A program made the position numbers and the translations under genes. From contig JAZKXP010000006.1 in NCBI GenBank assembly GCA_045611665.1, positions 1-60,283 of the forward strand: 60,283 bases of DNA, written 5' to 3'. The notes under the pieces were generated by a model. It saw nothing but the letters and a program-made list of their open reading frames with translations, was not told the origin of the DNA and did not search any database. Of this stretch, positions 269 to 60,109 are shown piece after piece; position 1 is the stretch's first letter, and every line of letters starts with the position of its first letter. This DNA is from Alphaproteobacteria bacterium. Lineage in GTDB: Bacteria > Pseudomonadota > Alphaproteobacteria > CAAHEQ01 > UBA3637.

Positions 269-1570
269 ATGCAAAAAATCAATAAAAAAGGATGTAAAAA
301 AATGATTTGGAAAATGTTGGCTTTGACGGGATTAGTAATGACGGCCGCTTGTGGTGTTAAACAAAACGATCCGTTTATGCAACCAATGTTTGGACGAGTA
401 CCGTCTGCGTATGATATGACGGTTGGAACGGCGTCAACAAAAATTGCCGTTTTGTTGCCCTTATCCGGAAAGTCATCGGGTGTTGGGACGGATATGCAAA
501 AGGCGGCTATGATGGCCGAATTTGATAGACGTAATTTGGGGGCCGCCGTTGTGTTTTATGATACGGCCGGAACGCCGGAAGGGGCAGAAAAGGCTTTGGA
601 AGCCGCCGAACGGATTAATCCGTCCGTGATTGTGGGGCCGGTATTTTCTGCGGCAGTGGAGGCTGTGAAAGATGAAGGAACTTTTGTTCCCGTATTGTCC
701 TTTACCTCAGATACAGAGGTCGTTGAAGATGATGTTTATACATTGGCGCTGACCATACCGACTCAGGTGAATAAAATTGCGGAATATGCGTGTGGACAAG
801 GGCAAAAAAGAATCGCTGTTATCGGACCGGAAAATAAGGTCGGAGAGATTGTTATGAATACGTTGTCGAAAGCCATTCAGAGATGCCCAAATATGGATAT
901 GGTTAAGGTATCATTATATGATCCCGCAACGGTTAATTTTGATCCGGTTATTGCAAAAATCGCCCCTCAGCCGATTGATTCCAGACGTAAGGATTTAACC
1001 GATGAAGAAAAAGAATTGCTGGCTAAACCAATCAGTGAAAAGGTGGAATTTGATTCATTATTTGTTTTTGAAGACGGTGTTAAATTGCAACAGGTTATGA
1101 GTATGTTGTCCTATTATGATATTACACCGAACGATATTCCTGTTTACGGATTGTCTTCTTGGGAAGGAATGAAAATAACCGAGTTGGTCGGTGGCTTTTA
1201 TCCTGCAATGCCGGTCGCCTTATCTGCTGATTTTAACGCCAGATTTCGCCAAGCATTCGGTGCGAAACCATCTGCTTTAGCGGCATATGCTTATGATGGT
1301 GTTTCGTTGGGTATTGTTTTGGGAACGCAAGGCGTATTGAATAAACAAAAATTGTTGGATGATAACGGTTTTTCCGGTGTTAACGGACGTTTTCGTTTGA
1401 ATGAAGACGGGACGAATTTACGATTGTTGGATATGAGACAGATAAAATCTAAGTATCGTTCTGTGGTTGTTGAACAAGCTCAAACAACTATGCCTAAGCG
1501 GGGAGATAATGATTTTTGGTATGCGCCGGCGATCATTGAGGAAGAGATACCAAACAATCCGTCTTTTTAA
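269..1570 (+). CDS. LpoA-like penicillin-binding protein activator / type I periplasmic-binding-fold lipoprotein
   Basis: 433-aa ORF with lipoprotein signal (LTGLVMTAAC) and a Leu/Ile/Val-binding-protein-like fold (IAVLLPLSG...G). Divergent from rsmI. The true start may be the internal ATG at 302. Confidence 0.65.
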   Translation: MQKINKKGCKKMIWKMLALTGLVMTAACGVKQNDPFMQPMFGRVPSAYDMTVGTASTKIAVLLPLSGKSSGVGTDMQKAAMMAEFDRRNLGAAVVFYDTAGTPEGAEKALEAAERINPSVIVGPVFSAAVEAVKDEGTFVPVLSFTSDTEVVEDDVYTLALTIPTQVNKIAEYACGQGQKRIAVIGPENKVGEIVMNTLSKAIQRCPNMDMVKVSLYDPATVNFDPVIAKIAPQPIDSRRKDLTDEEKELLAKPISEKVEFDSLFVFEDGVKLQQVMSMLSYYDITPNDIPVYGLSSWEGMKITELVGGFYPAMPVALSADFNARFRQAFGAKPSALAAYAYDGVSLGIVLGTQGVLNKQKLLDDNGFSGVNGRFRLNEDGTNLRLLDMRQIKSKYRSVVVEQAQTTMPKRGDNDFWYAPAIIEEEIPNNPSF

Positions 1571-1577
1571 AAATAAC

Positions 1578-1605
1578 TTGAAATGAACAATCCTTTCTGT
1601 ATAAT
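1578..1605 (+). promoter_or_regulatory. sigma70-like promoter of the 1642 pilin-like gene
   Basis: TTGAAA (1578-1583), 16-nt spacer, TATAAT (1600-1605), about 35 nt upstream of the GGAG RBS. Confidence 0.5.
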
Positions 1606-1641
1606 ATAGGCTATAAATTAAATATGCTGCGGAGTGAAAAT

Positions 1642-3069
1642 ATGAAACATAATCAATTCGGTCGGTCCATGGTGGAGATGTTGGGGGTATTGGCCATTAT
1701 GGGCGTATTGGCAATTATGGCTGTTGTCGGTTTTAAATATGCAATGGATAAGTCAAAGGCTAATCAGATTTATCATGATGCAAAAATCGCATATGTTTCT
1801 ATGGGGGCAGGGGCTCCGTACGATTGGACGGAAACGGAATTTACACCGTCCAGCGGATTTGTGACATTCGTACGGCGTGATAAAGCAAACAGAGATTTTG
1901 TATTGGTGGAACAAATACCGGACAGTGTGTGTGATATATTATTGAATATGTCTGAAGAGGCTGGCGAGGTTGTGTTGTATTCGGCTATGAATGAGCCTAT
2001 GTTGTGTGAAGAAGAGAAACAAGATATTGTCATTTCATTTGATGGAATTCCGCCGCTTATCCCGTGTTTTGATGCTGATGAATGTCCGTCTTGGTATAAC
2101 AGTTATTGTGACCCAACAGATGAGGTTTGTAAGACATGTGAATTGGGTCAGAAAACGAATGAGTTCGGGGACGGATGTGTGGATCTATGCTTAGATCGCA
2201 CGGATAAGTATACAAGCACATGTACATCTGAAGAAGCCGGAGCCAATTGGTGTTGTCCGGATAATTCGGTGTGCAGTCATGTCGTTGGTAAGTGTATTGA
2301 AGCGGCTAACGTTTGTGTTTATGATATGGCAAAAACAAATAATACGACCGTCTATTATACGTCAACATGCAGCTATACGATGGCGCAAACCGAAATAACA
2401 CAAATGTATTATACGGCAACATGCGGATATGATTTTGCTCAATCAACGGATTCAAATGGTAATATTACAACCTCTTTTTCAAAAATTGGTAATCCGTGTC
2501 CTGAAAATCATTATTGTCGTTTGACGTGGACAAAGCAAACGTGGAATTCCGGTGAAGCAGCTCCAACCGGTTTCGCGAATGATTATACAGGTGAAATGTG
2601 GGGTGTTTGTGTACCGATGTCGGCAACGTCGGCTAATGCTCAACCGGTGTATCCTGAATCCAAAAATTTACTGACTCGTAAAAAAATGCCGTGTCCCGAA
2701 AATCATTATTGTCGTTTGATGTGGACAAAAGAAAAATGGGAATCTGGCGAAACGACTCCGACAGGTTTTGCTAATGATTATGTCGGAGATATGTTTGGTG
2801 TTTGTGTGCCAATGTCGGCGACAACTGGAAACGCTCAGCCGGTATATCCGTCTTCTGACAATTTAATGAGTCTCAAGGGTGAAGATTGTCCGGAAAATCA
2901 GTATTGTAATTTAAGATGGACGACGACGGAGAATAATTGTGCTAACGCCTCTATTCCGAATGATCATGTTGGTTTGATGTATGGCAGATGTGTGGATATG
3001 AATCAAGTTAATACGGCAGTTTGTCCGGGTAGTGTTCCGGGGATTGTGATTCCGGAAGAAGAAAATTAG
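1642..3069 (+). CDS. Cys-rich secreted/surface protein with type IV pilin-like class III signal (sub-family A)
   Basis: ORF track 1624..3069. GGAG at 1631-1634 favours ATG 1642, giving leader MKHNQFG|RSMVEMLGVLAIMGVLAIMAVVGF (Gly, Glu at +5, ~20-aa hydrophobic helix). 28 Cys. Three C-terminal ~65-aa repeats. Paralog of 31548..32906. Confidence 0.8.
   Translation: MKHNQFGRSMVEMLGVLAIMGVLAIMAVVGFKYAMDKSKANQIYHDAKIAYVSMGAGAPYDWTETEFTPSSGFVTFVRRDKANRDFVLVEQIPDSVCDILLNMSEEAGEVVLYSAMNEPMLCEEEKQDIVISFDGIPPLIPCFDADECPSWYNSYCDPTDEVCKTCELGQKTNEFGDGCVDLCLDRTDKYTSTCTSEEAGANWCCPDNSVCSHVVGKCIEAANVCVYDMAKTNNTTVYYTSTCSYTMAQTEITQMYYTATCGYDFAQSTDSNGNITTSFSKIGNPCPENHYCRLTWTKQTWNSGEAAPTGFANDYTGEMWGVCVPMSATSANAQPVYPESKNLLTRKKMPCPENHYCRLMWTKEKWESGETTPTGFANDYVGDMFGVCVPMSATTGNAQPVYPSSDNLMSLKGEDCPENQYCNLRWTTTENNCANASIPNDHVGLMYGRCVDMNQVNTAVCPGSVPGIVIPEEEN
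2494..3045 (+). repeat. three tandem ~195-bp (65-aa) coding repeats (CPENHYC..W..W..GE..PTGFANDY.G.M.GVCVPM)
   Basis: Repeat units start near 2494, 2689 and 2884. Units 1 and 2 are about 80% identical at DNA level; unit 3 is diverged and shorter. Confidence 0.8.
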
Positions 3070-3071
3070 AT

Positions 3072-3099
3072 AAAATGCCCTTTTTTGAGGGCATTTTTT
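3072..3099. terminator. bidirectional intrinsic terminator between the pilin-like gene and hemW
   Basis: AAAATGCCC-TTTTTT-GAGGGCATTTTTT hairpin flanked by A/T runs on both sides. Confidence 0.7.
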
Positions 3100-4204
3100 A
3101 TGGCAACAGCATTAAAATAAGTTCATTTAATACTAAGGTTCCGTTTAGTGTCGGGGTTAACATTTTTTTGTTGTCGGATAGGTTAATCCACCCTAAATTT
3201 TTGGCCTTTTGAATGCCGCTTCCGGATAGTCCGTCTGTCGAAAACGGTTTATGTGTTAGTCGTAATCCCATTAAGAGTTTTTCCTCAAAGCGTTCTTGAG
3301 GGGTGAGTGTTTCAATCACTGTGCCGTTTTTGAGCCACTTATCTACGGATTTTGGCGCCTCTGTAGCCGTTAGTCCAAGCCGACCATGGGCGGCCGGCCC
3401 GATACCGATGTAATCACCCCCCGTCCAATAGGTTAAATTATGCCGGCTTTCTTCTCCTTGGCGAGCATAGTTAGATACTTCATAACTTGGAATGCCGGCT
3501 TCATTCATAATACTATCGGTTAAGCGGTATAACTGCTCAGCTGTTTTTTCATCGGCCGGTGATATGTTTTTTTGCCCGAATACGGTATTTTCCTCAATGG
3601 TCAGTTGATATAAAGAATAATGAGACAGCCCCAAAGATAAAGCCGTGCGTAATTCTGTTTCCCATTCCTTTGGTGTTTGGTTAGGGCGGGCATAAATTAA
3701 ATCCATATTGAGGTGAGGGAAAATGCTTTTTGCTTTCTCAATTTTGTTAAGGGCTGTTTGAACGGAATGTCTGCGCCCCAAAAATTTTAAATCTGTATCA
3801 TTCAGAGCTTGAACGCCGATGGATAATCGATTAATGCCCAGATTTTTAAAGGCGGTCATTTTTTCTTTGCTAATCGCATCCGGATTGGCTTCTAACGTGA
3901 TTTCAATATCATCTGACAGCGTAAAAACAGTTGTGATGCCGTGCATTAGTTTTTCCATAAATGCCTGCGACATTAACGATGGGGTGCCACCACCGAAAAA
4001 AATGCTGGTTAACCGGCGATTTGTGGTTAAATCAGCCATTTGTTTTAAATCTCTGAGATAACCAGCCATCAATATTTCTTCATTTGGAGCTGAACACGGA
4101 TGGCTGAAAAAATCACAATAGGGACATTTGCTGAGGCAGTATGGCCAATGTAAGTATAGACCAAATAAGGGTTTTTGATGTGATTGCATTTGACCTCTTG
4201 ACAA
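3098..4204 (-). CDS. hemW: radical SAM heme chaperone HemW (oxygen-independent coproporphyrinogen-III-oxidase-like)
   Basis: CxxxCxxC radical SAM motif (CLSKCPYCDF), GGGTPS motif, HemN_C-like tail, 368 aa. Confidence 0.85.
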   Translation of the reverse strand: MSRGQMQSHQKPLFGLYLHWPYCLSKCPYCDFFSHPCSAPNEEILMAGYLRDLKQMADLTTNRRLTSIFFGGGTPSLMSQAFMEKLMHGITTVFTLSDDIEITLEANPDAISKEKMTAFKNLGINRLSIGVQALNDTDLKFLGRRHSVQTALNKIEKAKSIFPHLNMDLIYARPNQTPKEWETELRTALSLGLSHYSLYQLTIEENTVFGQKNISPADEKTAEQLYRLTDSIMNEAGIPSYEVSNYARQGEESRHNLTYWTGGDYIGIGPAAHGRLGLTATEAPKSVDKWLKNGTVIETLTPQERFEEKLLMGLRLTHKPFSTDGLSGSGIQKAKNLGWINLSDNKKMLTPTLNGTLVLNELILMLLP

Positions 4205-4275
4205 TTTGTAAAAAAAGGGGTAGAGTTTTAATCCTGAAGATAATTATTGATTAATCTAACAAGAAAGATAAAACA

Positions 4276-4824
4276 ATGCAAATAATAATTACAGGTCAAC
4301 AAATTAATTTAGGCGACAACTTGCGTTCTTATGCCGAAAAAGCTTTGGATGCGGCTGTTTCAAAATATTTTGCCGACGCAATCAGTGCTGATGTGCGTGT
4401 GATTAAAGAAGGCGAAGAAATCAGAACGGATATTACGGTTCATCCGATTGCCGGTGCTTTGGTGAAAACAACGGCATTTTCTGCCGATGCTTATGCTTCA
4501 TTTGATGGCGCTGTTGCAAAATTGTCCAGACAGCTCAGCCGTTATAAAAATCGTTTGACGGATCATCGTGCCGAACCGGTAGAAATGGTTGATATGGCCG
4601 TTATTGATGCCAAAGAAGACGAAGAAGAAGTCGGTGATGCTCCGGTGATTATTGCCGAAATGCAAACTGAATTACCGATTTGTACGGTCAGCGGTGCGGT
4701 TATGCGTATGGACTTGGCTGGACTTCCGGCATTGATGTTTAAAAACTCCGCTCATGGTGGTCTTAATATGGTTTACCGCCGTCCGGATGGTAATATCGGT
4801 TGGATTGATCCAAAAAATAAGTAA
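4276..4824 (+). CDS. hpf: ribosome hibernation promoting factor (long HPF)
   Basis: S30AE N-terminal domain (MQIIITGQQINLGDNLRSYAEKAL) plus C-terminal dimerisation domain. Followed by ptsN, as in rpoN-hpf-ptsN clusters. Confidence 0.85.
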   Translation: MQIIITGQQINLGDNLRSYAEKALDAAVSKYFADAISADVRVIKEGEEIRTDITVHPIAGALVKTTAFSADAYASFDGAVAKLSRQLSRYKNRLTDHRAEPVEMVDMAVIDAKEDEEEVGDAPVIIAEMQTELPICTVSGAVMRMDLAGLPALMFKNSAHGGLNMVYRRPDGNIGWIDPKNK

Positions 4825-4833
4825 GGATAATCC

Positions 4834-5289
4834 ATGAAAATTATTGATATTTTATCAAAGGATTCTATTGTTCCGAATGGGGCGTACGGCAGTAAACGTC
4901 AATTATTGGAAGAATTGGCTAAGGTGGCGTCTCGTCAAACCGGACTGGATGACAGAATTGTCTTTGATGCATTATTGGAACGGGAACGTTTAGGCACAAC
5001 GGGTGTTGGTAAAGGGGTTGCTTTGCCGCACACCAGATTGTCCGGGTTGGATAAGATTTTTTGTGCTTTTATTAAATCCGAACCGGTTTCATTTGATGCT
5101 GTTGACGGAAAACCCGTTGATTTAATCTTCTTATTGTTGGCTCCGGAAGAATCGGGGGCTGATCACCTGAAAGCATTGGCAAAATTATCTCGTATTTTAC
5201 GTGATGAAACGGCCGCCGAAGGATTGCGTCAGGCGAAATCATCAGATGATATTTATGCCTTGATTGAAAAGTATGACGCAGAAGATTAA
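4834..5289 (+). CDS. ptsN: nitrogen-related PTS EIIA (PtsN)
   Basis: EIIA-2 fold with phospho-His context GVGKGVALPHTRL. 151 aa, immediately downstream of hpf. Confidence 0.85.
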   Translation: MKIIDILSKDSIVPNGAYGSKRQLLEELAKVASRQTGLDDRIVFDALLERERLGTTGVGKGVALPHTRLSGLDKIFCAFIKSEPVSFDAVDGKPVDLIFLLLAPEESGADHLKALAKLSRILRDETAAEGLRQAKSSDDIYALIEKYDAED

Positions 5290-5308
5290 GTAGAAAAGTT
5301 AAATGAAT

Positions 5309-5336
5309 GCCCCTCTGTCAGAGGGGTATTTTTTTA
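5309..5336 (+). terminator. intrinsic terminator after ptsN
   Basis: CCCCTC-TGTCA-GAGGGG followed by a T run. Confidence 0.75.
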
Positions 5337-5362
5337 GAAAATTAATATCCCTAAAAAAATCC

Positions 5363-5391
5363 TTGACTTTTATGTATGGATAGTGTATATT
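5363..5391 (+). promoter_or_regulatory. sigma70-like promoter of the leu leader/leuA
   Basis: TTGACT (5363-5368), 17-nt spacer, TATATT (5386-5391). Confidence 0.6.
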
Positions 5392-5398
5392 CGCCCAC

Positions 5399-5467
5399 AT
5401 GAACAATAAAAAACTACATCTCTTGTTATGCTTGTTAGGAAATAATAACCATCTCCTAAGAGGGTAG
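5399..5467 (+). CDS. Leu-rich leader peptide (22 aa) of a leuA attenuator
   Basis: ATG 5399 to TAG 5465-5467 gives MNNKKLHLLLCLLGNNNHLLRG, 8 Leu in 22 codons. It lies between the promoter and a strong terminator just upstream of leuA. Too short for the ORF track. Confidence 0.7.
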   Translation: MNNKKLHLLLCLLGNNNHLLRG

Positions 5468-5490
5468 CTTTTATACATTTTTTTAAAGCC

Positions 5491-5519
5491 AAACACCCTT
5501 TTAGGAGGGTGTTTTTTTT
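5491..5519 (+). terminator. attenuator terminator upstream of leuA
   Basis: AAACACCCT (5491-5499) / AGGGTGTTT (5506-5514), 9-bp stem plus T run. Segment 5453-5465 (CTCCTAAGAGGGT, end of leader ORF) is complementary in 12 of 13 positions to 5495-5507, giving a possible antiterminator. Confidence 0.7.
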
Positions 5520-5541
5520 ATTATCTAGTGAAAGGAAAAAT

Positions 5542-7050: not shown

Positions 7051-7054
7051 AAAA

Positions 7055-7086
7055 ACGGCCATCGGTTCTCCGGTGGCTTTTTTTGT
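7055..7086 (+). terminator. intrinsic terminator after leuA
   Basis: GGCCATCGG-TTCT-CCGGTGGC followed by T7. Confidence 0.7.
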
Positions 7087-7149
7087 CATCCCTGATTGTT
7101 GAGGTAAGTAATTGTTTTGCTGTCATTCAGAGGTGTTTTAGTTGTTTTT

Positions 7150-7617: not shown

Positions 7618-7746
7618 TTGATATTGTTCCTTCTGAGTGCGAGTATAAAATAACTGTATTATAAAAACAAACAAAAAAATAATTGCATAAAAAACAATGT
7701 CTTATGCGAAAAACAAATAAAAATATAATTTTTTTAAAAAAAGTGC

Positions 7747-7775
7747 TTGACTTTTGATTTTAAAAGGTATATATT
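7747..7775 (+). promoter_or_regulatory. sigma70-like promoter in a very AT-rich spacer
   Basis: TTGACT (7747-7752), 17-nt spacer, TATATT (7770-7775), about 115 nt upstream of the 7890 ORF. Confidence 0.4.
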
Positions 7776-7889
7776 TATTGCGATTTTTCGTTTTAAAAGG
7801 GAATTACAATTTAAAAGATTAAAAATTTGTAATAATTACAATGAATTAAATTAAAAAAACAACATCATTATAACAGAAGGGAAAAATAA

Positions 7890-8132: not shown

Positions 8133-8198
8133 TAAAGAAAAAAATAAAATATCCCCCGCCCGCAAAAAACGGTGGGGGATTTTTATTCGTGCATCCTA

Positions 8199-8468
8199 TT
8201 ACTCATTCGGATTGTGACACACGATACGAGGGCTTAGTGCTCTACGGGCATTTAGTTGGTTATTAATTATCTCTCCGACTTTATTGTTATACACCCGCAT
8301 GCATCCGGTCCATTGACAATAACTGCTACATTTTCCAGATTGGCAGTAACTGGTTGGCGTACATTTTTGCCCATTTTGTGCTTCTACATCACAGACACCG
8401 ATAATTGCCAGCGTTCCCAACATTTCAACCATAGAACGACCAGATTGTAACGTGTGTTTCAAGTTCAT
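8199..8468 (-). CDS. mini-variant / deletion derivative of pilin-like Cys-rich family (sub-family B)
   Basis: The first 26 aa (MNLKHTLQSGRSMVEMLGTLAIIGV) and the 5' UTR are nearly identical to gene 16460. The hydrophobic helix is cut short and fused to one Cys-knot module and a C-terminal ...RIVCHNPNE tail. Its 3' flank/terminator resembles that of 45946..47385. Confidence 0.5.
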   Translation of the reverse strand: MNLKHTLQSGRSMVEMLGTLAIIGVCDVEAQNGQKCTPTSYCQSGKCSSYCQWTGCMRVYNNKVGEIINNQLNARRALSPRIVCHNPNE

Positions 8469-8490: not shown

Positions 8491-8530
8491 TTTATCTGTC
8501 ATAAAAACGCCCCTTTTTATGACAGATAAA
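8491..8530. repeat. perfect 17-bp inverted repeat in shared 5' UTR (copy 1)
   Basis: TTTATCTGTCATAAAAA-CGCCCC-TTTTTATGACAGATAAA, about 25 nt upstream of the RBS of the minus-strand gene. Confidence 0.9.
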
Positions 8531-16398: not shown

Positions 16399-16438
16399 TT
16401 TATCTGTCATAAAAAGGGGCGTTTTTATGACAGATAAA
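16399..16438. repeat. perfect 17-bp inverted repeat in shared 5' UTR (copy 2)
   Basis: TTTATCTGTCATAAAAA-GGGGCG-TTTTTATGACAGATAAA, followed by ATTCGAAAAAAGGAGTAAAAA-ATG. Confidence 0.9.
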
Positions 16439-16459: not shown

Positions 16460-17473
16460 ATGAACTTGAAACACACGTTACAATCTGGTCGTTCTATGGT
16501 TGAAATGTTGGGAACGCTGGCGATTATCGGTGTTCTGTCTGTCGGTGGTATTGTTGGATATTCCTACGGTATGGATAAATATTGGGCGAATGAAACAATT
16601 AATGATGTGAATATGCGAGGTATTGATTTAGTGCGTCAAGTTGCCACGAATCAAGCCCCTGATTTATCCGATTGGCCCACTGTATCACAAGCCGGATATA
16701 CCATCAGTGAGGCCAATTTAAGCGCCGATGGTGAGGCCTATTTTAGTATTTCGGGTATGTCTCAACGTGTGTGCGAAATGGTTTATGAGGGGATTCAAAA
16801 CAACCAAACGACCGTCGTCAAAATTAACGAATCAACAAACGGAGATACCTCTGATTGTCAATCCGACAATAACACCATGACATTTTTCTTTGTAACAACG
16901 GCTGGGGGTGGTGGTGTAAAACCAGAAGATTTGTGTCAAAATGTCACCTGTCAAGAAGGATATTCTTGTACCCATGGGATTTGTATGAGTGAGATGCTTC
17001 CTCAATTCCATTCTAATGGATTTAAATATTGTTCTTCTAGTTTTCAATGTTCGGAATGTCAATATTGCCATAGTGAGTGGCAATATTGTGAAAGTAATGA
17101 TAATGGAACGGTGTGTGCCGGTGGAACGTGTTATAATGGAAAATGTGTTTTGAATGAGGATATCTGTACATCTCATGATGATTGTGCCAAGGGGTACTTC
17201 TGTGATAAGGGAGATTCTAATAAATGTGTTAAATTAGATTGGTATAAAATTCCAGGTAATGATATTTATATTTCTAAAGTAGCTACTGAAGATGATTTAT
17301 GTGAATTAGCTGGTTTTTACTCTTTAACAAAAGCACAAATGATGTATGTTGTCAAGGAACTTGGGGATTCTATTGTCTCTTATAGCGCTTATTTGCATAC
17401 CAGTGATGCCGGTGGTTGTGATAGGGATGATATGGTGGCAGTCCAGCCAATTCGTTGTGTGTTCCCGATTTAA
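16460..17473 (+). CDS. Cys-rich protein with type IV pilin-like class III signal (sub-family B)
   Basis: MNLKHTLQSG|RSMVEMLGTLAIIGVLSVGGIVGYSYG. Pilin-like head (..RVCEMVYEG..TMTFFF), then EGF/knottin-like CxxGxxC modules. 21 Cys. Confidence 0.8.
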   Translation: MNLKHTLQSGRSMVEMLGTLAIIGVLSVGGIVGYSYGMDKYWANETINDVNMRGIDLVRQVATNQAPDLSDWPTVSQAGYTISEANLSADGEAYFSISGMSQRVCEMVYEGIQNNQTTVVKINESTNGDTSDCQSDNNTMTFFFVTTAGGGGVKPEDLCQNVTCQEGYSCTHGICMSEMLPQFHSNGFKYCSSSFQCSECQYCHSEWQYCESNDNGTVCAGGTCYNGKCVLNEDICTSHDDCAKGYFCDKGDSNKCVKLDWYKIPGNDIYISKVATEDDLCELAGFYSLTKAQMMYVVKELGDSIVSYSAYLHTSDAGGCDRDDMVAVQPIRCVFPI

Positions 17474-23605: not shown

Positions 23606-24499
23606 ATGAATTCTAAATCAACTCATACACATACAGCAAAAGAAGAAGTTTGCAAAACATCTGCTTGCAAGTGCGGTGAAGATTGCAAGTGCTGTGAAAC
23701 ATCTTGCTGTTCTAAATTTTTAATGCCGGCTACTGTTTTGGCCAGTGCTATTTTGATTTCCGGTTCTATTTTGGCAGTGGCTTTTGACGGTCCGTGTGCT
23801 CGTAGAGTAAAGTCAATGAAAGACAAAGGAATGCGTCAAGAACAAGTTATTCATGATTATATCGTGAAAAATCCGAAAGTATTGATTGACACAGTTGAAA
23901 AATACTATGAAGAACAACGTAAAGCCGAAGCTAAAAAAGCTCCGCAAAAACCTGCTCCGCAAGCCGAAGCCGATAAAACTTTGGTTGACGAAATTTTGAA
24001 TGACAAAACGAATCATGTTTTGGGTAACCCAAAAGGTAAATTTGTTATCATTGAATTCTTTGATTATCAATGTGGTTGGTGTAAACGTACCAATAAAGAA
24101 ATTTCTGCAGTGTTGAAAGATGCTCCGAATATTCGTTGGGTTTTGATTGATACACCGATTTTTGGCGAAGCCAGTGAACAAATTGCTCGCTATGCCATGG
24201 CTGCCGGTAAACAAGGTAAATTTAAAGAATATCATGAAGCTATCGGTAATGCCAAAGGTAAATTGGATAAAGATGCCTTGATTAAATTAGGTCGTGATTT
24301 GAAACTTAACACAAAACGTTTGACTGCCGATGCCGAAAGTCAAGAAGTTAAGGATAAAATGGCTAAAAATCAAAAATATGCTCGTCAGTTGAATATTAAC
24401 GGCGTGCCGATGTTGATTGTTGACGGTAAAATTAATCCGGGTGCTTTAATCGGCGACAGATTGGCTGATGCCGTAGCAGCTTCTAAAGCTAAAAAATAA
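23606..24499 (+). CDS. DsbA-family thiol:disulfide oxidoreductase with Cys-rich cytoplasmic N-terminus and membrane anchor
   Basis: DsbA fold with CGWC active site (FFDYQCGWCK). N-terminus CKTSACKCGEDCKCCETSCC (9 Cys in 21 aa) precedes one TM helix. Confidence 0.8.
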   Translation: MNSKSTHTHTAKEEVCKTSACKCGEDCKCCETSCCSKFLMPATVLASAILISGSILAVAFDGPCARRVKSMKDKGMRQEQVIHDYIVKNPKVLIDTVEKYYEEQRKAEAKKAPQKPAPQAEADKTLVDEILNDKTNHVLGNPKGKFVIIEFFDYQCGWCKRTNKEISAVLKDAPNIRWVLIDTPIFGEASEQIARYAMAAGKQGKFKEYHEAIGNAKGKLDKDALIKLGRDLKLNTKRLTADAESQEVKDKMAKNQKYARQLNINGVPMLIVDGKINPGALIGDRLADAVAASKAKK

Positions 24500-31547: not shown

Positions 31548-32906
31548 TTGAAACGTGATTTTGACTCCGGTCGGTCTATGGTGGAAATCATTGGCGTGAT
31601 GGCGGTGATGGGCGTTTTAATTATCGGCGGAATAGCCGGATACAAATACGCCATAGACAAAGCCAAAGCGAATCACATTATGAAAGATGTAGAACTGGCA
31701 TATGTGGCTGTATCTGCCTCCCCTGACCGAGAAAATATCGGCCTTACCGAATATACCGATGCCGTCAGCGGTTTTCCGACTTTTACAGAATGCATTATAG
31801 ATAAAGACTTTCAAGCAGATATTATCTTAGTCAAACACGTTCCTGAATCGGTCTGTGACAAAGTGTTGGAAATGGCCGAACCGACGCAGTGGATTGTTTC
31901 TTCGGTGGAAACGGATACGAATTATCTGTACCCGTTGACGGAATGTTCGGATACAAATGCATTAGTATTTTCTTTAGCCGATATACGCGATTTTGCATAC
32001 ACTTGCGATAAAGAATGTCCCGCAAATATGATGTGTGGCGTGAATGATGATTGTATTTGTGCCTATGGGTACAAGGCTGATGAAACAGGGACTTGTCAAG
32101 AAATTCAATGTGATGAAACGACAGAAGTCACTTGCACTTTTGACAGAGGGGAAAAATGGTGTTGCCCATACAATACATTCTGCAGCGAAACCCAAATCGG
32201 ACAATGTATTCCCTCAGATGGGTCATGTATTTATTACTTTTATGGTAATGGTAATACAGATTCTAAATATACAACAAATTGTAGTTACTTTGTTGCCGCC
32301 CAAGATACTGTCGAAAAAAATGGAACGAATTGCAGTTATATTATCAGTAGTTCTGGTACAGTAACATCCAACCAAGAATGTCCAGAAAAAAATCATTATT
32401 GCGCACTGATTTGGACAAAAGCAAGTTGGGAGGGAAATGAACAAGAGCCTATTGCATCTGGTAATTTTACTGGAACAATCTATGGTAAATGTCAATCAAT
32501 GGCGGCTTTTGAACGAACACCCGTCGTCTCATACAAAGAAGGAAAGTCAATGATTTACCCAAATATTGAATGTCCAGAAAAAAATCATTATTGTGCACTG
32601 ATTTGGACAAAAGAAAATTGGGAAGGAAATGAACAAGAGCCTATTGCATCTGGTAATTTTACTGGAACAATCTATGGTAAATGTCAATCAATGGCGGCTT
32701 TTGAACAAACACCTATTATGAAACACAATGATGCCAATCCTTTAAATTATCGTGTTGAAAAAGAATGTCCTCAAAAGCAATATTGCCATTTACAATGGTC
32801 AAATGAAATCTGCGAAATAGCTCCTGCAGATATAACTGGCCCAATATATGGAGCATGCGCGAGCATGAACACCTCAAATAAAGCTTGTCCCATAAAATCA
32901 GAATAA
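31548..32906 (+). CDS. Cys-rich protein with type IV pilin-like class III signal (sub-family A)
   Basis: TTG start 7 nt after GGAGG. MKRDFDSG|RSMVEIIGVMAVMGVLIIGGIAGYKYA. Head domain and three C-terminal ~64-aa repeats homologous to 1642..3069. Confidence 0.8.
   Translation: MKRDFDSGRSMVEIIGVMAVMGVLIIGGIAGYKYAIDKAKANHIMKDVELAYVAVSASPDRENIGLTEYTDAVSGFPTFTECIIDKDFQADIILVKHVPESVCDKVLEMAEPTQWIVSSVETDTNYLYPLTECSDTNALVFSLADIRDFAYTCDKECPANMMCGVNDDCICAYGYKADETGTCQEIQCDETTEVTCTFDRGEKWCCPYNTFCSETQIGQCIPSDGSCIYYFYGNGNTDSKYTTNCSYFVAAQDTVEKNGTNCSYIISSSGTVTSNQECPEKNHYCALIWTKASWEGNEQEPIASGNFTGTIYGKCQSMAAFERTPVVSYKEGKSMIYPNIECPEKNHYCALIWTKENWEGNEQEPIASGNFTGTIYGKCQSMAAFEQTPIMKHNDANPLNYRVEKECPQKQYCHLQWSNEICEIAPADITGPIYGACASMNTSNKACPIKSE
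32376..32900 (+). repeat. three tandem ~192-195-bp coding repeats; units 1 and 2 nearly identical
   Basis: Units start at about 32376, 32568 and 32763. Units 1 and 2 share a ~145-nt stretch with only a handful of mismatches (ECPEKNHYCALIWTK..WEGNEQEPIASGNFTGTIYGKCQSMAAFE). Confidence 0.85.
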
Positions 32907-32933: not shown

Positions 32934-33338
32934 ATGAAAAAAGTACTCATACTAATATGTATTATTTTAACAATATTTAATATTACATCAGTGCATGCGG
33001 AATCTTGTGCTGGTGGACATGGTACAATTCAAACTGGTATAAATGGCAAAAAGTATTGCGCCAGCAAAAATACTTTAAATTGGTGGAGCGCTCATGCTTG
33101 GTGTCGAAAAGCCGAAGGATTTTCTGAACTACTAACCATGGAAGATTGTGATTGTACTGGTTATGATGAATGTGATACAACATTAAGTTGTCCAAATTTA
33201 AAAAATATTTATGAAAGTTGGTCTGGTATTCCTGCGGGAAAAGATAACGCATATTATTTTTCGTATGGAGCCGTCAAACATCCTGGCCCTCTTGGAAGAT
33301 ATCGAAATTGGGGGGGCTATAGAGCACTATGTAAATAA
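32934..33338 (+). CDS. small secreted Cys-rich C-type-lectin-like protein
   Basis: Signal peptide. KYCASKNTLNWWSAHAWCRKAEGF...YRALCK pattern. Paralog of 43109..43555. 27 nt downstream of the pilin-like gene, so probably co-transcribed. Confidence 0.7.
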   Translation: MKKVLILICIILTIFNITSVHAESCAGGHGTIQTGINGKKYCASKNTLNWWSAHAWCRKAEGFSELLTMEDCDCTGYDECDTTLSCPNLKNIYESWSGIPAGKDNAYYFSYGAVKHPGPLGRYRNWGGYRALCK

Positions 33339-42895: not shown

Positions 42896-43077
42896 AAGGT
42901 AAGTATTTTGCCCCGAGGTGTCAGAACCTCTTAAAGCGCGTCCGACAGCGGACGAAAAATATACGCTTTCCAGCATTGGCTGGAGGGCGGCAAAATAGGC
43001 AGTAATGCTGAATATGCCCACTATTCGCTTTAATAGTTCTGAACTTCCAGCCACTTTTTTTATAAAGGTGGTTTTTT
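42896..43077 (+). ncRNA. structured cis-regulatory leader RNA, copy B
   Basis: Promoter TTGATT (42861-42866)/17 nt/TAATCT (42884-42889). GCCCCGAGG-TGTCAGAA-CCTCTT (42910-42932). Loop TCAGAAC (42921-42927) is complementary to GTTCTGA (43036-43042). Central hairpin CTTTCCAGC-ATTG-GCTGGAGGG (42966-42987). 3' box ACTTCCAGCC (43043-43052). Terminator CCAC..GGTGG plus T6 (43051-43077). Confidence 0.75.
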
Positions 43078-43108
43078 GTTGAATGATAACAGAAAGGGAA
43101 TGTTCAAA

Positions 43109-43555
43109 ATGAAAAACTTATTTTTAATCTGTGCTGTTTTATTCACTACACCTGTTGCATTGGCCGATGATATCACTACCGAAACTTGTGCGAATGGCGC
43201 CGGAACAGTTATTGTGGGAAAAAGCGGTACTCAATATTGCATGAGCAACAATACAATGAATTTTTGGAATGCTTATTCTTGGTGTGATTCTTTGGGGATG
43301 CGTTTTATTGATTTAAATACTGAATGTGGATGTTCATCATTAGTTGATTGTAATGGACCTGTAAATACAGCAGGAAAATGTCCTGAATTGGCAACGGGGG
43401 TGGATACAAATATTTATATTTGGACAACATATTCTCAGGGACAAAATCCCTTGCTGATGAGCATTAATAATGGTGAAATTACATCGTATTGGACATATCG
43501 TTCACACACATCAAATGGTGTTAAAGGATGGCCATATCATGCTTTATGTCGCTAA
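43109..43555 (+). CDS. small secreted Cys-rich C-type-lectin-like protein
   Basis: ORF track 43076..43555. ATG 43109 follows RBS AAAGGGA and gives signal peptide MKNLFLICAVLFTTPVALA. QYCMSNNTMNFWNAYSWCDSLGMRF...YHALCR. Paralog of 32934..33338. Confidence 0.7.
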   Translation: MKNLFLICAVLFTTPVALADDITTETCANGAGTVIVGKSGTQYCMSNNTMNFWNAYSWCDSLGMRFIDLNTECGCSSLVDCNGPVNTAGKCPELATGVDTNIYIWTTYSQGQNPLLMSINNGEITSYWTYRSHTSNGVKGWPYHALCR

Positions 43556-45945: not shown

Positions 45946-47385
45946 TTACTTATCGGTGCAAAGTATAAAACCAGCAGAATATTGATTAGCATCATAAGGT
46001 GATATATGCTCTGTTCCGCCACAAATAAAACGTTGTGAAGTATTCTCAGAATAAACATCTTCCAGCCACTTTCTGTTAATGTTGGTTTTAAATGATTTTG
46101 CTCGATTGTTGGGAACAACGGTTGAGAGGTGTTCTGAATCAAATGACCACGATAAATAAAAATCATCGGCTTTGGCCATTCGCCATCCACTAGAACTACA
46201 GACATCTTTGGCCGTGTACCAATTTGTAAAATCGCTACTAGTTGAGGGGAAATACCAATTTTCCGTATGTTCTATGCCATTTTCATCCGTAAATGTAATT
46301 GTTTCGGTTGTATAGGATGGTACCTGTTCGCAAACACCACTCCCGTTTTGGGATAACCCATTACAGTATTGTCCACTGCCACACACCTTATGCGAGGTAC
46401 ATGAAATGGCGCAAGTCCCATCTAGCCAACATATACCGATTTGGTTATCTTGCGTTATACACATATTCCCTATCAAATAGGTACAAGAATTATCTTGACA
46501 CCCGACACAAACTGTATCTACTCCTTGTTCTGTGGCATACATAGTACAATCAATACCCCCACATAGCGTGTTTTCAGTTTGGCATATACCATTAGAACAC
46601 ACACCTTGCTTACCGTTTTTCTCACAAGTTAATCCACCGATAAGAGTTGGTGTACCATCTGCTACAACAAAGCAAGCTGGATCATAAGGGCAATTTTCCA
46701 CACTGCCGGTTTCACTGATACAAGTTTGTGTTCCGTCTGCCATACAAGTACCCAATACGCAATATCCCGTTTGTCCATCTTCAGTTGTACATTTAGATAT
46801 TGGTCCATTATTACTACAGCCTTTATTTTCTTCTTCATCAAAATAAAAGACCAACGTATTTTCATCACCGCAATCGCCGGCGTTTTCTCCCGCATATTCG
46901 GCATTAATTTTAACAGCTTTTGCATGTTTTTCCATACCCTCTACCATCAACTCACATACACGGCTCGGCACACCGGATACCTGAATTCCTATGGTTTCAT
47001 CTTCTAACGTAATCGGGTAAAGAGTCTTTTCATTTTTCCACCCATCTAAGGTGGCATCTCCGGTTGTATCAAACTGAGCCAACACATCTACAGCTCGTAC
47101 ATTCACATCATATATAGTCCGATTTGCCCGATATTTGTCCATACCGTAGCTGTAGCCGGCAATTCCGCCGACACTCAATACGCCGATGATGGCCAAAGTA
47201 CCGAGCATTTCTACCATAGAACGTCCACTTTGTGCTATGATGGCCCCTCGGGTCTTCGTTTCACTCCGACCGAGGGAGACAGAAAGGGGGAAACGACCGG
47301 CTTCTACTTTTCTATCATACTGGTGCCCCTCACCAGTATCCAGCAGTAATGAGGCATTATTATGGTTAAAATCTTGCGTAGCCAT
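45946..47385 (-). CDS. Cys-rich protein with internal pilin-like class III signal and C-type-lectin-like C-terminus (sub-family B)
   Basis: RBS AAGGAAG before ATG 47385. The motif ...AQSG|RSMVEMLGTLAIIGVLSVGGIAGYSYGMDKYRAN begins only at about residue 53. Many CxxGxxC modules. C-terminus FTNWYTAKDVCSSSGWRM...GFILCTDK. Confidence 0.75.
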   Translation of the reverse strand: MATQDFNHNNASLLLDTGEGHQYDRKVEAGRFPLSVSLGRSETKTRGAIIAQSGRSMVEMLGTLAIIGVLSVGGIAGYSYGMDKYRANRTIYDVNVRAVDVLAQFDTTGDATLDGWKNEKTLYPITLEDETIGIQVSGVPSRVCELMVEGMEKHAKAVKINAEYAGENAGDCGDENTLVFYFDEEENKGCSNNGPISKCTTEDGQTGYCVLGTCMADGTQTCISETGSVENCPYDPACFVVADGTPTLIGGLTCEKNGKQGVCSNGICQTENTLCGGIDCTMYATEQGVDTVCVGCQDNSCTYLIGNMCITQDNQIGICWLDGTCAISCTSHKVCGSGQYCNGLSQNGSGVCEQVPSYTTETITFTDENGIEHTENWYFPSTSSDFTNWYTAKDVCSSSGWRMAKADDFYLSWSFDSEHLSTVVPNNRAKSFKTNINRKWLEDVYSENTSQRFICGGTEHISPYDANQYSAGFILCTDK

Positions 47386-55255: not shown

Positions 55256-56035
55256 ATGTTTACGAGAATTACCAATTTTAAGGGAAGTACATATTTTGAA
55301 TATGATTATGGCAATATACCATCCCGGTATATTGAAGTGCGATCTATTCCTCGAGCCATTAATGATGTGCGGTGGGATTTGACTTTGGGTAATGATAAAA
55401 TATACCGTCAAACAGTTAAAAATTGGGCAGAATGTGTTGAGCTTGAGCATTATTTTTCTAAAAAAGATGTTTTAAGTATTCGTCGTCGTGGTGTTTTGCC
55501 GGAGGGGTATTCTTTGCATCATATTCATCCCCGTGCGTTGGGCGGAAATACGATGGAATTAAAGAATATGGTTTTAATACCATATGATTTGCACGAACGA
55601 TTGCATGATTTTTTGCGTGATTTTATTATTATTAAATGTTTGCCGCGGACTCATTTAACGGCACCAATTCCACAAAATAAGAAAGTTTTTATGCAAGTTC
55701 CTATTTTGCCGCCAGTTGTTCGCGAGATAGATTTGCAATTTGCGATGAAACCAGCTTGTTTTGAACGTGATATTTGGCGTGCTGAAAAAATAATTACAGG
55801 ATATTTACGTCGTTATCCGAATAGCATATGCCGACCGTTATTTGTAAATGGTGTTATTGCTCAGTCGCCTAATCGTACAGTTATACCATCGTGGCCGCCA
55901 GCTCGTGTAGAGCCAACTAAAGTACATCAATTGCATAGAACGCATCAAAAATCACCACGTTTTCAACAAGAACATTGGTCTTTTAATGAGTGGGCCGCTA
56001 GTGTCAGAAATCGCAGTCAGAATTTTAGAACTTAG
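55256..56035 (+). CDS. HNH (His-Me finger) domain protein, paralog 1
   Basis: YSLHHIHPRALGGNTMELKNMVLIPYDLHERLH, followed by the family motif FMQVPILPPVV. Confidence 0.65.
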   Translation: MFTRITNFKGSTYFEYDYGNIPSRYIEVRSIPRAINDVRWDLTLGNDKIYRQTVKNWAECVELEHYFSKKDVLSIRRRGVLPEGYSLHHIHPRALGGNTMELKNMVLIPYDLHERLHDFLRDFIIIKCLPRTHLTAPIPQNKKVFMQVPILPPVVREIDLQFAMKPACFERDIWRAEKIITGYLRRYPNSICRPLFVNGVIAQSPNRTVIPSWPPARVEPTKVHQLHRTHQKSPRFQQEHWSFNEWAASVRNRSQNFRT

Positions 56036-56046
56036 GGAATATATGG

Positions 56047-56658
56047 ATGATAGATACATATTTAAACGAAGACGGCAATTTGGTTTTTACATACGATTCT
56101 CGTATGGAAAAAGAGGTTAAGCCTGTTTTATATCGTGATGATGAAGCGGTTTGTGCAATGCGTATGGCTTATGAGAAAAACAATAAAATTCAACGTGAGT
56201 TTTTAAAGCATTTAGCAGCTCAAGGCCATTTAAACAAAGTATTCCCAAAATCGGTTATTCGTGCTGCTTTAAATCGTGGTGCAAGACCCAGAAATTATCA
56301 AGTTCATCATATTGTTCCGCTTTGTTGTGGCGGCAGTAATGATTTTTCCAATTTAATGTTAGTTCATAAAGATGTTCATGCTGAAATTCATGATCGAATT
56401 TGGAAGGGAATTTATAAGACGTTAGCGGCAGGGATTAAACAACGTCGAGCCTTTGTTGATTTGCCCAAATTACCTCCGGTTATGATTCCAGAAGATAAAG
56501 TGTTGTTGTTGAGTTTAGAGGAATTAAGTAGATTGTTAGCTAAGGAAAAGTGTAAACGTGCAAAGTCTGCTTATCGAAATGGACAACAGTTGGGGCATCA
56601 AATTTCAAAACACACAAGTTATCACATCTCGCCTAATCAAGGTCGTTCATCGAGATAG
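56047..56658 (+). CDS. HNH (His-Me finger) domain protein, paralog 2
   Basis: YQVHHIVPLCCGGSNDFSNLMLVHKDVHAEIH, the best-preserved HNH motif of the three, then FVDLPKLPPVM. Confidence 0.7.
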   Translation: MIDTYLNEDGNLVFTYDSRMEKEVKPVLYRDDEAVCAMRMAYEKNNKIQREFLKHLAAQGHLNKVFPKSVIRAALNRGARPRNYQVHHIVPLCCGGSNDFSNLMLVHKDVHAEIHDRIWKGIYKTLAAGIKQRRAFVDLPKLPPVMIPEDKVLLLSLEELSRLLAKEKCKRAKSAYRNGQQLGHQISKHTSYHISPNQGRSSR

Positions 56659-56677
56659 GAGTAGTAAGGGGGATAGA

Positions 56678-57415
56678 ATGTTTTCACAAATTGCACACGA
56701 TGAAAAAAATAATGTTTATTGTTGGTATGACTATAGGGGAGTGCCTTCTCGTTGGGTTGAAGTGATGGGGCGCCATACTAGAAAGTTTGAAGGATTTGAA
56801 GAAACTGTTTTGAAACAATGTGCTTCTCAAGGGATATTTGATGCCTTTCCTGAATTTAAAGCTCAAGCGCAAGAGGGGTTTGTAAAGGGGTATTATTTAT
56901 ACAATTTACACCCAATTGGTATGGGTGGCAATTTGTATGGTAAAACATGTTGTAATTTAAGTTTAATGCCCAAAGAATATGTTGATACCTTATATCGTTT
57001 TTTGAATGGATGGTATTATGGAAATTTATTAATAAAGCCAGATCGTGTTGCGGCAGATGGTCATAAAATTTTTATTAATGTGCCGATTTTACCAGCTGTT
57101 GTCAGTGAAAAAGATATGCCATTTTTAGATATTTTTAAAAATCCGGCCGAGGTAAAAAAACACGATATTATGTGTCAACATGGGCATGATGTTTTGGTAA
57201 AAATGCAGGCACATCAATTGAGTGTTTCTGGATTAACGCAAGAAACATATTCGGCTGCTGGTTATAAACGAGCTGAGTGTATTTATCCGCCAAAAAGTTT
57301 GCAGGATAAAATTGCGCATACACAGACAATTGCGGGAGGACCGGAAAAATCTGAGATGATTATCACAAAGTCACGAGAATTGATTGTTCCAAATAGACCA
57401 CGTACTCGCGAATAA
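56678..57415 (+). CDS. degenerate HNH-family protein, paralog 3
   Basis: ORF track 56558..57415. ATG 56678 follows TAAGGGGGA. YYLYNLHPIGMGGNLYGKTCCNLSLMPKEYVDTLY keeps the fold landmarks but not the HH pair or distal His. FINVPILPAVV motif is retained. Confidence 0.6.
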   Translation: MFSQIAHDEKNNVYCWYDYRGVPSRWVEVMGRHTRKFEGFEETVLKQCASQGIFDAFPEFKAQAQEGFVKGYYLYNLHPIGMGGNLYGKTCCNLSLMPKEYVDTLYRFLNGWYYGNLLIKPDRVAADGHKIFINVPILPAVVSEKDMPFLDIFKNPAEVKKHDIMCQHGHDVLVKMQAHQLSVSGLTQETYSAAGYKRAECIYPPKSLQDKIAHTQTIAGGPEKSEMIITKSRELIVPNRPRTRE

Positions 57416-59677: not shown

Positions 59678-59717
59678 TTTATCTGTCATAAAAAGGGTCG
59701 TTTTTGTGACAGATAAA
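59678..59717. repeat. 17-bp inverted repeat in shared 5' UTR (copy 3, one mismatch)
   Basis: TTTATCTGTCATAAAAA-GGGTCG-TTTTTGTGACAGATAAA, followed by the same ATTCGAAAAAAAAGGAGTAAAAA-ATG. Confidence 0.9.
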
Positions 59718-59740: not shown

Positions 59741-59890
59741 ATGAACTTGAAACACACGTTACAATCCGGTCGGTCTATGGTGGAAATGCTATGGGTTTTG
59801 GCGATTATCGGTGTTCTGTCTGTTGGGGCGATAGCGGGATATTCCTACGGTATGGCCAAATACCGTGCGAATGAAACGATTAATGATATT
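59741..59890 (+). pseudogene. 5' fragment of a sub-family B pilin-like gene
   Basis: MNLKHTLQSGRSMVEMLWVLAIIGVLSVGAIAGYSYGMAKYRANETINDI is homologous to 16460 and 45946. After about codon 50 the similarity ends, and the track ORF (to 60094) reads through low-complexity sequence and the next gene's promoter. Confidence 0.7.
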
Positions 59891-60109
59891 ATGCTCAACC
59901 GACTTATGCTTATGGAGTTAATAGGGCCCAACATCGTGGCGGCGGGCGGTGAGTTTTTGCCACAAAATCAATTTCTGCACCTAATTATCGTTAATAACAT
60001 TAAAGTTATCAGAATGATTTTTATCTGTCTTTGTCTTTTTTTAAAAACACTTGACAGAAAATATGTTTTCTGCTATTTTCTTTCGAAAAAGTAACAGGAG
60101 TTATGGACT

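Follow-up and report, generated by a model that had tools for sequence, protein, structure and literature searches.

The stretch of DNA analysed here, referred to below as the window, comprises positions 1 to 60,283 of contig JAZKXP010000006.1 (assembly GCA_045611665.1, Alphaproteobacteria bacterium), and it carries scattered members of a family of genes for cysteine-rich proteins with a prepilin-like N-terminus. The window was scanned in all six frames for open reading frames (ORFs) bearing G-R-S-M-V-E-(M/I)-(L/I), and exactly six were found, at the places given in a preliminary description made from the sequence alone. That description listed all six as members, the one at 59741 as a fragment; four are intact genes (called m1 to m4 here) and the other two, at 8199 and 59741, are remnants. 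The members and the parts of m1 are as follows:

1642..3069, + strand: m1, intact by ORF and motif; 475 amino acids (aa) from MKHNQFG, 28 Cys
1642-1662, + strand: m1 leader, MKHNQFG
1663-2052, + strand: m1 pilin-like head, residues 8-137
2053-2511, + strand: m1 Cys-rich stalk
2512-3066, + strand: three β-rich repeats of m1, about 65 aa each
8199..8468, - strand: remnant 8199, 89 aa; 5' module and first ~26 residues as in m2
16460..17473, + strand: m2, intact; 337 aa, leader MNLKHTLQSG, 21 Cys
31548..32906, + strand: m3, intact; 452 aa from a TTG start, 29 Cys
45946..47385, - strand: m4, intact; mature part of 425 aa from about 47223, 27 Cys
59741..60094, + strand: remnant 59741, 117 aa; first ~50 residues family-like, then degenerate

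All six members have in common an almost invariant N-terminus, (E/Q)xG↓RSMVEMLGVLAI(I/M)GVL, where the arrow marks the putative cleavage site. The intact genes form two subfamilies, m1/m3 and m2/m4; m3 is like m1 in architecture and 35% identical to it across the full length, and m4 is 37% identical to m2, which is laid out as a pilin-like head followed by Cys-rich modules and a lectin-like C-terminal end. Remnant 8199 jumps in frame after ~26 residues into a short Cys-rich tail, the head having been deleted. The start codon of m4 is uncertain, as the sole canonical start (ATG at 47385) would give a 53-aa leader with the Gly at residue 54 of the frame. The high Cys content (21-29 in the intact members) and the tandem repeats that had been noticed are both real, and the latter are visible in the DNA of m1 (a 195-nucleotide (nt) unit present 1.8 times at 2496-2850) and of m3 (two 146-nt copies, 97% identical, at 32376-32521 and 32568-32713). 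The proteins can be divided into four parts: a short basic leader that ends in Gly, a near-invariant α1 segment (RSMVEMLGVLAIIGVLS..., with Glu at +5), a small type IVb (T4b) pilin-type head with a conserved Cys pair, and a disulfide-rich C-terminal module that consists of Cys-knot stalks, 65-aa β repeats or a lectin-like end.

The signal motif is conserved far beyond chance. In 190 distinct N-termini from related genomes (whose conservation is partly imposed by the regular expression that selected them) there is (E/Q) at -3, G at -1 (100%), R at +1 (99%), S at +2 and E at +5 (100%), and the residues after E+5 read LGVLAI(I/M)GVLS(I/V)GGIAGY.YAM.K..AN. G-1 and E+5 are also invariant in independent alignments of 54-77 relatives, and in both these aligned relatives and the 190 N-termini there is hardly any variation at R+1, S+2 and the ~20 residues that follow. 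This is the class III-type layout originally proposed (Gly at -1, Glu at +5, a short leader and Arg at +1). Leaders are 7-10 aa long in the window members, m4 being uncertain, and commonly 8-20 aa in the relatives, while E+5 is followed by ~20 hydrophobic residues that make up the N-terminal half of an α1 helix predicted by AlphaFold2 (AF2) at residues 6-53. One JGI relative has been named automatically as a PulG pseudopilin, and this is the sole functional annotation among family members.

The head domain behind this helix resembles the T4b pilins. The head-only AF2 model of m1 (137 aa, predicted local distance difference test (pLDDT) score of 85.6) has a 48-residue α1 helix and a small sheet, and its five best Foldseek matches are all T4b pilins, CofA 9iuf, TcpA 8uhf, CofA 3s0t, S. 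Typhi PilS 3fhu and CofA 3vor; the match to CofA 9iuf, of the CFA/III pilus, has a probability of 1.00 (TMq 0.60) and that to TcpA 8uhf, of TCP, 0.96. The full-length m1 model, built on a 54-sequence alignment (pLDDT 88.2), shows a helix at residues 9-53, a small α/β head and then an all-β C-terminal part; its top match in the PDB is the T4b minor pilin TcpB (7w63), though the TM-score is low, as a query of several domains would lead one to expect. At the sequence level, the head profile finds TcpA as its best PDB match (E = 1.3e-4), 13 of its 15 matches are type IV pilins, and the alignment to TcpA passes through 'V.gVP..VC', which places the conserved Cys on Cys120 of TcpA; with a full-length profile the TcpA-type match is weaker. 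The conserved head noticed earlier is confirmed by a VPxxVC motif and by Cys97 and Cys122, which are nearly invariant in 54-77 sequences, and the structure prediction that had been suggested as a check gives a T4b pilin fold, with α1 packed on an antiparallel sheet and a predicted disulfide from the helix that follows the second strand. The head is therefore, by predicted structure and by sequence evidence that ranges from marginal to significant, a T4b-type pilin module. None of the window members has a Pfam match to PF08805 PilS or PF05307 Bundlin.

The C-terminal modules are less easily named. The epidermal growth factor (EGF) and lectin labels first attached to the window members are not confirmed by Pfam; no window member matches the Pfam EGF or Lectin_C models and the resemblance to C-type lectins is weak (E = 0.33 to the PLA2R C-type lectin domain in the PDB). 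One paralogue, at 6198-8423 (+) of locus L002, has strong EGF repeats, a eukaryote-like module of teneurin type (PF25024, 2e-45; PF23106, 3e-38), and when ten very large members were examined with Pfam, domains were recognised in one only. Among the m1 orthologues (P0001-P0008) the C-terminal repeats are the best conserved part (58-89%, and 87-89% in the three closest) and the pilin head is usually the least conserved (36-65%), which on sequence comparison fits a conserved ligand-binding function of the repeats. For a simple 'variable adhesin tip' one would expect the opposite pattern, with the head kept and the repeats variable.

No component of a pilus, of a type II secretion system (T2SS) or of a Tad system was seen among the window ORFs that were read by eye or scanned with Pfam, as the preliminary description had it. 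In a first round of wider searches, 81 member-centred genomic loci were compared by tblastn with E. coli GspC-O, HofB/C and PpdD, and nothing but pilin N-termini matched (the divergent secretin of locus L023 was missed and came to light later with lineage-specific queries), and regular expressions for the A24 prepilin peptidase (GxGDxK) and for T2SSE motifs found nothing in these loci; a weak GspE match in L027 is the ABC-F protein EttA. In a second round the 57-residue N-terminus of m2 was compared with metagenome contigs, and this query retrieved loci in which the identical signal is found on proteins of 189-218 aa. These begin with NEQxG↓RSMVEMLGVLAIIGVLSVGGIAGYS, match PF08805 PilS (4e-17) and PF05307 Bundlin (1e-13), and are encoded in complete T4b pilus operons on contigs of 46-52% G+C. 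In L118 and L168, which are human-gut contigs, the operon order is a 614-aa protein, TcpQ (PF10671), secretin (PF00263), PAP_PilO (PF06864), a 521-aa protein, the T2SSE ATPase and the T2SSF platform protein, and then a 191-aa bundlin-fold protein with an uncleaved-looking anchor, one to three pilins and a second T2SSE of 320 aa. A large minor pilin is not encoded in the operon, and the 10 kb around it revealed no A24 peptidase. Genes for TrbC/VirB2 and VirB4 of a type IV secretion system (T4SS) are divergently upstream, and neither a relaxase nor an integrase was seen near the operon in the fetched range. The back-to-back layout of T4b operon and T4SS, seen in two divergent clades (859-6980 (-) in L168, L169, and 6629-9896 (+) in L023), resembles the thin pilus and T4SS of IncI plasmids.

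Locus L023 joins this machinery to the family. It is a GTDB contig (45% G+C) of the Alphaproteobacteria metagenome-assembled genome (MAG) BRZ_AF__bin11 and has a TcpQ/secretin/PilO block (the secretin being 40% identical), TrbC and VirB4, with a 662-aa Cys-rich family member directly after VirB4. Further large members of the same MAG are in L038 and L065, so machinery and family are present in one MAG. In addition, contigs of low G+C content (33-36%) encode PilS-like pilins with the family signal. Pilins of the Tad/Flp type, which have an ESG↓xxxxE layout, were considered but not adopted, as fold, hydrophobic segment and associated machinery (PilS/bundlin, TcpQ, PilO) are all those of T4b systems; a Tad-type peptidase could still be the one that acts on this signal.

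Taken together, these findings make it probable (we would put it at about 0.7) that the genes encode modular T4b pilins, each composed of a pilin "handle" and a paralogue-specific cysteine-rich module, and that the members most likely serve as adhesive subunits which can replace one another on a pilus. The core of the earlier proposal, in which large modular proteins with a class III signal are borne by a pilus, is thereby strengthened by the T4b fold, the TcpA match, the identical signal on operon pilins and the co-occurrence of machinery and members in one MAG; its alternative suggestion of a novel secretion signal is not needed.

Several observations weigh against this reading. The residue at +1 is Arg and not a hydrophobic or aromatic one (such as Phe, Met, Leu or Val) that becomes N-methylated, as in type IV pilin signals, and Arg is not known at this position in characterised prepilins. 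Hidden Markov models (HMMs) for the N-terminus, which the preliminary description had proposed as a check, register the resemblance but leave the intact members below their cut-offs; window members score 11.3-15.7 bits with PF07963 N_methyl (cut-off 21.2), m2 and m4 score 11.8-12.5 with TIGR02532 (cut-off 16.3) and the other intact members do not match it, remnant 59741 being the only member above that cut-off (18.5). When α1 is removed, hhalign comparison of the heads with the operon pilins gives only a weak in-register match of 30 columns (P = 0.0017, probability 15%). The contigs with the T4b operon have 45-52% G+C as against ~40% in the window, whose own clade has so far shown no machinery. 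No A24 prepilin peptidase was found in the window, in 1.17 Mb around the 81 loci or in 0.67 Mb of metagenomic loci (~1.9 Mb in all, made up of loci and not of whole genomes). Finally, the largest member has a mature length of 1,632 aa and 112 Cys, and it is not obvious how proteins of such sizes would pass a secretin.

Some of these points would suit another explanation, in which the N-terminus, cleaved or not, is an inner-membrane anchor and nothing more, and the Cys-rich domains act in the periplasm or at the outer membrane, as bitopic proteins or short pseudopilus-like stubs. Neither peptidase nor machinery was found near any of the ~110 large members, some of which look too bulky for export, and the 191-aa operon protein noted above shows that anchored proteins of pilin fold occur in this system. 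On the other hand, an anchor requires neither an invariant G-1 and E+5 nor an α1 identical to that of the operon major pilins, whereas a filament requires both, and EGF-like, lectin-like and repeat modules together with paralogue expansion are typical of surface adhesins. An anchor alone is thus distinctly unlikely in our estimation, and we return to the modular pilins.

We infer that cleavage after the Gly, incorporation into a filament, location at its tip and adhesion all apply to these proteins, in the following way. A member would be inserted in the inner membrane by α1, and an A24 prepilin peptidase would cut it after the Gly. The shared α1 would then dock it into a filament of major pilins of PilS/bundlin type with the same signal (such pilins were found in relatives only), and this filament would be assembled by the TcpQ-secretin-PilO-T2SSE-T2SSF machine seen in the relatives' operons. 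T4b systems need a single large initiator or tip minor pilin, as TcpB, CofB and PilV exemplify, and the dispersed large genes would supply it in trans, because the T4b operon is without a large minor pilin and the genomes hold many dispersed genes of just that design. Each member would present a different disulfide-rich binding module at the pilus tip, and a genome would in this way carry a repertoire of alternative tip adhesins. That the single T4b tip pilin has been turned into a genome-encoded library, with dozens of interchangeable tip subunits per cell and thousands of variants in the lineage, many of them with eukaryote-like EGF or lectin-like disulfide-rich modules, is a tentative proposal, which we find possible but hold with less than even confidence.

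Possible partners of these pilins are small Cys-rich proteins with a Sec signal (131-159 aa, with a '..NWWsA..WC..' motif and no Pfam family), two of which are encoded in the window:

32934..33338, + strand: small Cys-rich Sec-signal protein, 134 aa, 28 nt downstream of m3; no Pfam family
43076..43555, + strand: paralogue of the 32934 protein (30% identity), not adjacent to a family member

Such a gene lies 16-68 nt downstream of an m1/m3-type member at four loci (m3 in the window, 11637-11996 in L002, 11450-11830 in L003, and downstream of 9923-11332 in L005). The pair formed by m3 and its neighbour recalls the CofB-CofJ and TcpB-TcpF pairs, and by this analogy the small proteins may be candidate secreted partners of the pilin. 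In another reading the class III-like signal would be a targeting tag, and the members would not stay on the pilus; the T4b machine would extract them from the membrane, to be released or shed in soluble form to the gut lumen, where they would be Cys-rich toxins or binding proteins. T4b pili do double as secretion devices for TcpF and CofJ (PMC6048534, PMC5207764), and small Sec-dependent proteins directly downstream of m3-type members do suggest secreted partners; the T4b-secreted proteins known so far, however, use Sec signals, bind the minor pilin and lack pilin N-termini, and a full pilin head would be superfluous on a simple export tag. Secretion of this kind is in our opinion very unlikely, and we consider the members below as pilins.

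The genes appear to have been in their present places for a long time. Orthologues of m1 in other species keep its context, between lppC and hemW-hpf-ptsN-leuA, and are 64-80% identical to it, and, in the window and in other MAGs alike, members adjoin fabD, infC, moxR, rpsP, eno and thrS. This synteny of the orthologues and the lineage-wide conservation of the positions mark the members as old chromosomal loci, and recent mobile insertion is rejected on the same grounds. The original account placed members at breaks between conserved housekeeping blocks, and its flavour of insertion at breaks of synteny is mistaken (the positions next to fabD, infC, moxR, rpsP/eno and thrS and between lppC and hemW are the conserved ones); its other statement, that no integrase or transposase is nearby, agrees with what we saw among the ORFs scanned, which were not all of those in the window.

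These positions bear on the possibility that the proteins serve conjugation only, as PilV-like recipient-recognition adhesins on the mating pilus of a chromosomal T4SS element, and not as adhesins for hosts or glycans in general. The T4b operon does stand back to back with TrbC/VirB2 and VirB4 in L023, L168 and L169, the L023 member does follow VirB4, and the IncI thin pilus of R64 and TP114 is a precedent (PMC9045228). Nevertheless, the members are scattered among housekeeping genes at lineage-conserved positions and do not belong to a mobile element, neither a relaxase nor an integrase was seen, and their numbers per genome are far above any known shufflon repertoire. An exclusive role in conjugation is hence unlikely; it would in any case be a sub-case of the modular-pilin model and does not contradict it.

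The 5' ends of some members have a more recent history. A module of ~125 nt is common to m2 and both remnants, and it contains a 40-nt palindrome with the following copies:

16399..16438, + strand: copy 1, perfect, 40 nt with 17-bp arms, TTTATCTGTCATAAAAA-GGGGCG-TTTTTATGACAGATAAA; 22 nt upstream of the m2 ribosome-binding site
8491..8530, - strand: copy 2, upstream of remnant 8199
59678..59717, + strand: copy 3, with 2 mismatches, upstream of remnant 59741

No copy of this palindrome is expected by chance, its RNA would fold with -22.3 kcal/mol (z = -5.8), and it is absent from 83 related loci; it may be an operator or a 5' untranslated-region hairpin that controls a subset of the family. The shared module points to recent duplication or gene conversion of the 5' ends. 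In a similar vein, subsets of paralogues within each genome have identical leader peptides, and these differ between genomes; examples are MSVKNKTNKNYKRSQKG in MAG SIG60 (L021, L037, L042, L046, L054, L068, L078), MTRQFKKQVQNQSQSG in rabbit-gut (Lapin) MAGs (L009, L022, L069), and MKIKFNEIG on four tandem copies in L041. Such within-genome identity suggests, at the level of sequence, concerted evolution of the 5' ends.

The family is large and has gone unannotated. The closest relatives (up to 80% identity) come from metagenomes only; those that bear a name are entered as 'MAG: Alphaproteobacteria bacterium' and stem from guts of animals and humans, and every one is annotated as hypothetical. 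A scan of one genome per GTDB species gave at least 594 pattern matches and at least 545 confirmed ones, and the 80 loci that were kept all belong to MAGs of uncultured gut Alphaproteobacteria (from human, rabbit, sheep, yak, buffalo and roe deer), with several loci per MAG; they hold 97 family ORFs with a median mature length of 403 aa. An exhaustive profile search with the head domain retrieved 6,467 clusters at 50% identity, 5,216 of them at E <= 1e-10, and there are many family copies per genome. The family is not represented by any model in Pfam or NCBIfam, a comparison of the head domain with 72,556 plasmids gave no match, and nothing relevant was found in the literature on the signal motif or on this gut lineage with pili.

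A clade of low G+C content has, in addition, pilin-sized members (precursors of 141-175 aa, mature proteins of 115-140 aa), which have a conserved α1, a variable middle and a C-terminal disulfide loop and are often encoded in tandem. In L069 a small pilin gene is directly upstream of a large member. Matches of the small-pilin profile in the PDB are confined to the α1 region, and the contexts of the small-pilin genes (L047, L069, L042, L026, L084, L087) show ankyrin-repeat proteins and acetyltransferases and no machinery. Genes of L069 that were guessed to be those of a T4SS turned out with Pfam to encode an arylsulfotransferase, an OmpA protein and a DUF6311 protein. The ankyrin-repeat proteins recur beside tandem small pilins (7861-8820 in L047, 8985-9614 and 11482-12087 in L084, and 12639-14345 in L087), and the organisms with these loci also have genes for pyruvate formate-lyase and for an [FeFe]-hydrogenase-like protein, as would suit anaerobes that live in association with a host. 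Proteins of 570-780 aa with a different signal, G↓S(L/I)MVEV(L/I)AVLGL..., make up a second pilin-like family, which is encoded less than 10 kb from family members (2927-4648 (-) in L038 and 13739-16081 (-) in L048), with no machinery adjacent.

Two further features of the window are listed here:

23606..24499, + strand: DsbA/ScsC-like thiol:disulfide oxidoreductase with an unusual Cys-rich N-terminal stretch, CKTSACKCGEDCKCCETSCC
55256..57415, + strand: three adjacent paralogous ORFs just upstream of thrS and remnant 59741

The DsbA-like oxidoreductase may be relevant to the folding of this organism's many disulfide-rich proteins. The middle ORF of the trio has an HNH endonuclease motif (PF01844, 7e-5). 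Searches of the window for tRNAs and with Rfam gave no match. Between about 35000 and 42000 the G+C content falls to as low as 31%, against the ~40% of the window, and the genes there, judged by eye from their translations, include several glycosyltransferase-like genes and a UDP-GlcNAc 2-epimerase-like gene; the segment looks like a surface-polysaccharide island.

What makes the family of wider interest is that work on T4b pili has been almost confined to enteric pathogens and IncI plasmids, in which one large minor pilin primes the pilus and sets its binding, and here that priming or tip subunit has apparently been multiplied into a huge, unannotated family in common uncultured commensals of human, ruminant and rabbit guts. 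If the library exists, it would be the gene-family equivalent of a plasmid shufflon, with one Arg+1 signal and one pilus machine serving the members in trans, and would let the pilus switch among host, mucus or microbial ligands, possibly with the small secreted partners and the adjacent T4SS. Such adhesins may decide where these bacteria sit in the gut, and one pilus machine with many ligand-binding modules would be a testable model. The signal variant escapes the standard prepilin detectors, and its signature, ESG↓RSMVEMLGVLAI, could if read correctly annotate thousands of "hypothetical" gut proteins; the Arg at +1 also raises the question of which peptidase accepts such a substrate.

One large minor pilin is required in those T4b systems that have been studied; it shares α1 with the major pilin, primes assembly, is located at the tip and has a C-terminal binding region (PMC5207764, PMC6048534, PMC9045228). 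TcpB of V. cholerae and CofB/LngB of enterotoxigenic E. coli resemble the members discussed here in having a T4b pilin domain with Glu5 and a large β-rich C-terminal extension, and TcpB is also the top Foldseek match of the full-length m1 model. TcpB and CofB initiate assembly and sit at the pilus tip, and CofB, which has a lectin-type domain at its end, binds the small secreted CofJ (PMC5207764, PMC6048534). Both are, however, single-copy proteins encoded inside the pilus operon beside the major pilin, whereas the family here is dispersed with many paralogues and none in the operon; its C-terminal modules are unrelated and cysteine-rich, it has Arg at +1, and no match to TcpB or CofB was detected at the sequence level.

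PilV of the IncI thin pili (R64, TP114) is a T4b minor pilin with a constant N-terminus and alternative C-terminal ends that set target specificity, and the IncI pilus operon (PilN secretin, PilO, PilQ ATPase, PilR platform and PilS pilin) sits beside a T4SS (PMC9045228). The operons found here are similar in that they match the PAP_PilO and PilS Pfam families and have T4SS genes adjacent. But PilV is one gene varied by DNA inversion, with 7-8 variants, while the present family consists of many complete genes and a far larger repertoire, its genes are chromosomal and conserved in position, and no Rci-type recombinase was seen.

More generally, grafted modules occur widely among pilins, and the modular pilins of Raynaud et al. 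2021, such as S. sanguinis PilB (vWA module) and PilC (lectin module), were found through IPR012902; its authors expect that many more, with modules that have no signature in the databases, have gone unnoticed (PMC8179133). The family shares with them a small pilin module on which a functional module is grafted for presentation on a filament. It differs in that its scores do not reach the thresholds of the N-methyl HMMs, for which reason a search through IPR012902 would not have found it, and in being T4b-type, from a diderm, cysteine-rich and massively paralogous.

The family agrees with the T4b major pilins PilS, bundlin (BfpA), TcpA and CofA in its head fold and in where the first disulfide Cys lies, and its signal is identical to that of the PilS/bundlin pilins of the related operons; these pilins are 180-200 aa long, whereas the family heads have ~130 aa, lack a Pfam T4b match and show marginal similarity outside α1. 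Expansions of another kind are formed by the DUF1559 proteins of Planctomycetes and Verrucomicrobia and by pilin-like proteins of Elusimicrobia, with tens to hundreds of prepilin-signal genes per genome, diverse C-termini and locations far from machinery, but these have canonical GFTLIE-type signals that are recognised by HMMs and are not T4b-like. The new features of the present family are the Arg+1 signal that escapes standard models, the extreme expansion of paralogues, the cysteine-rich, partly EGF-like modules and the home in uncultured gut Alphaproteobacteria.

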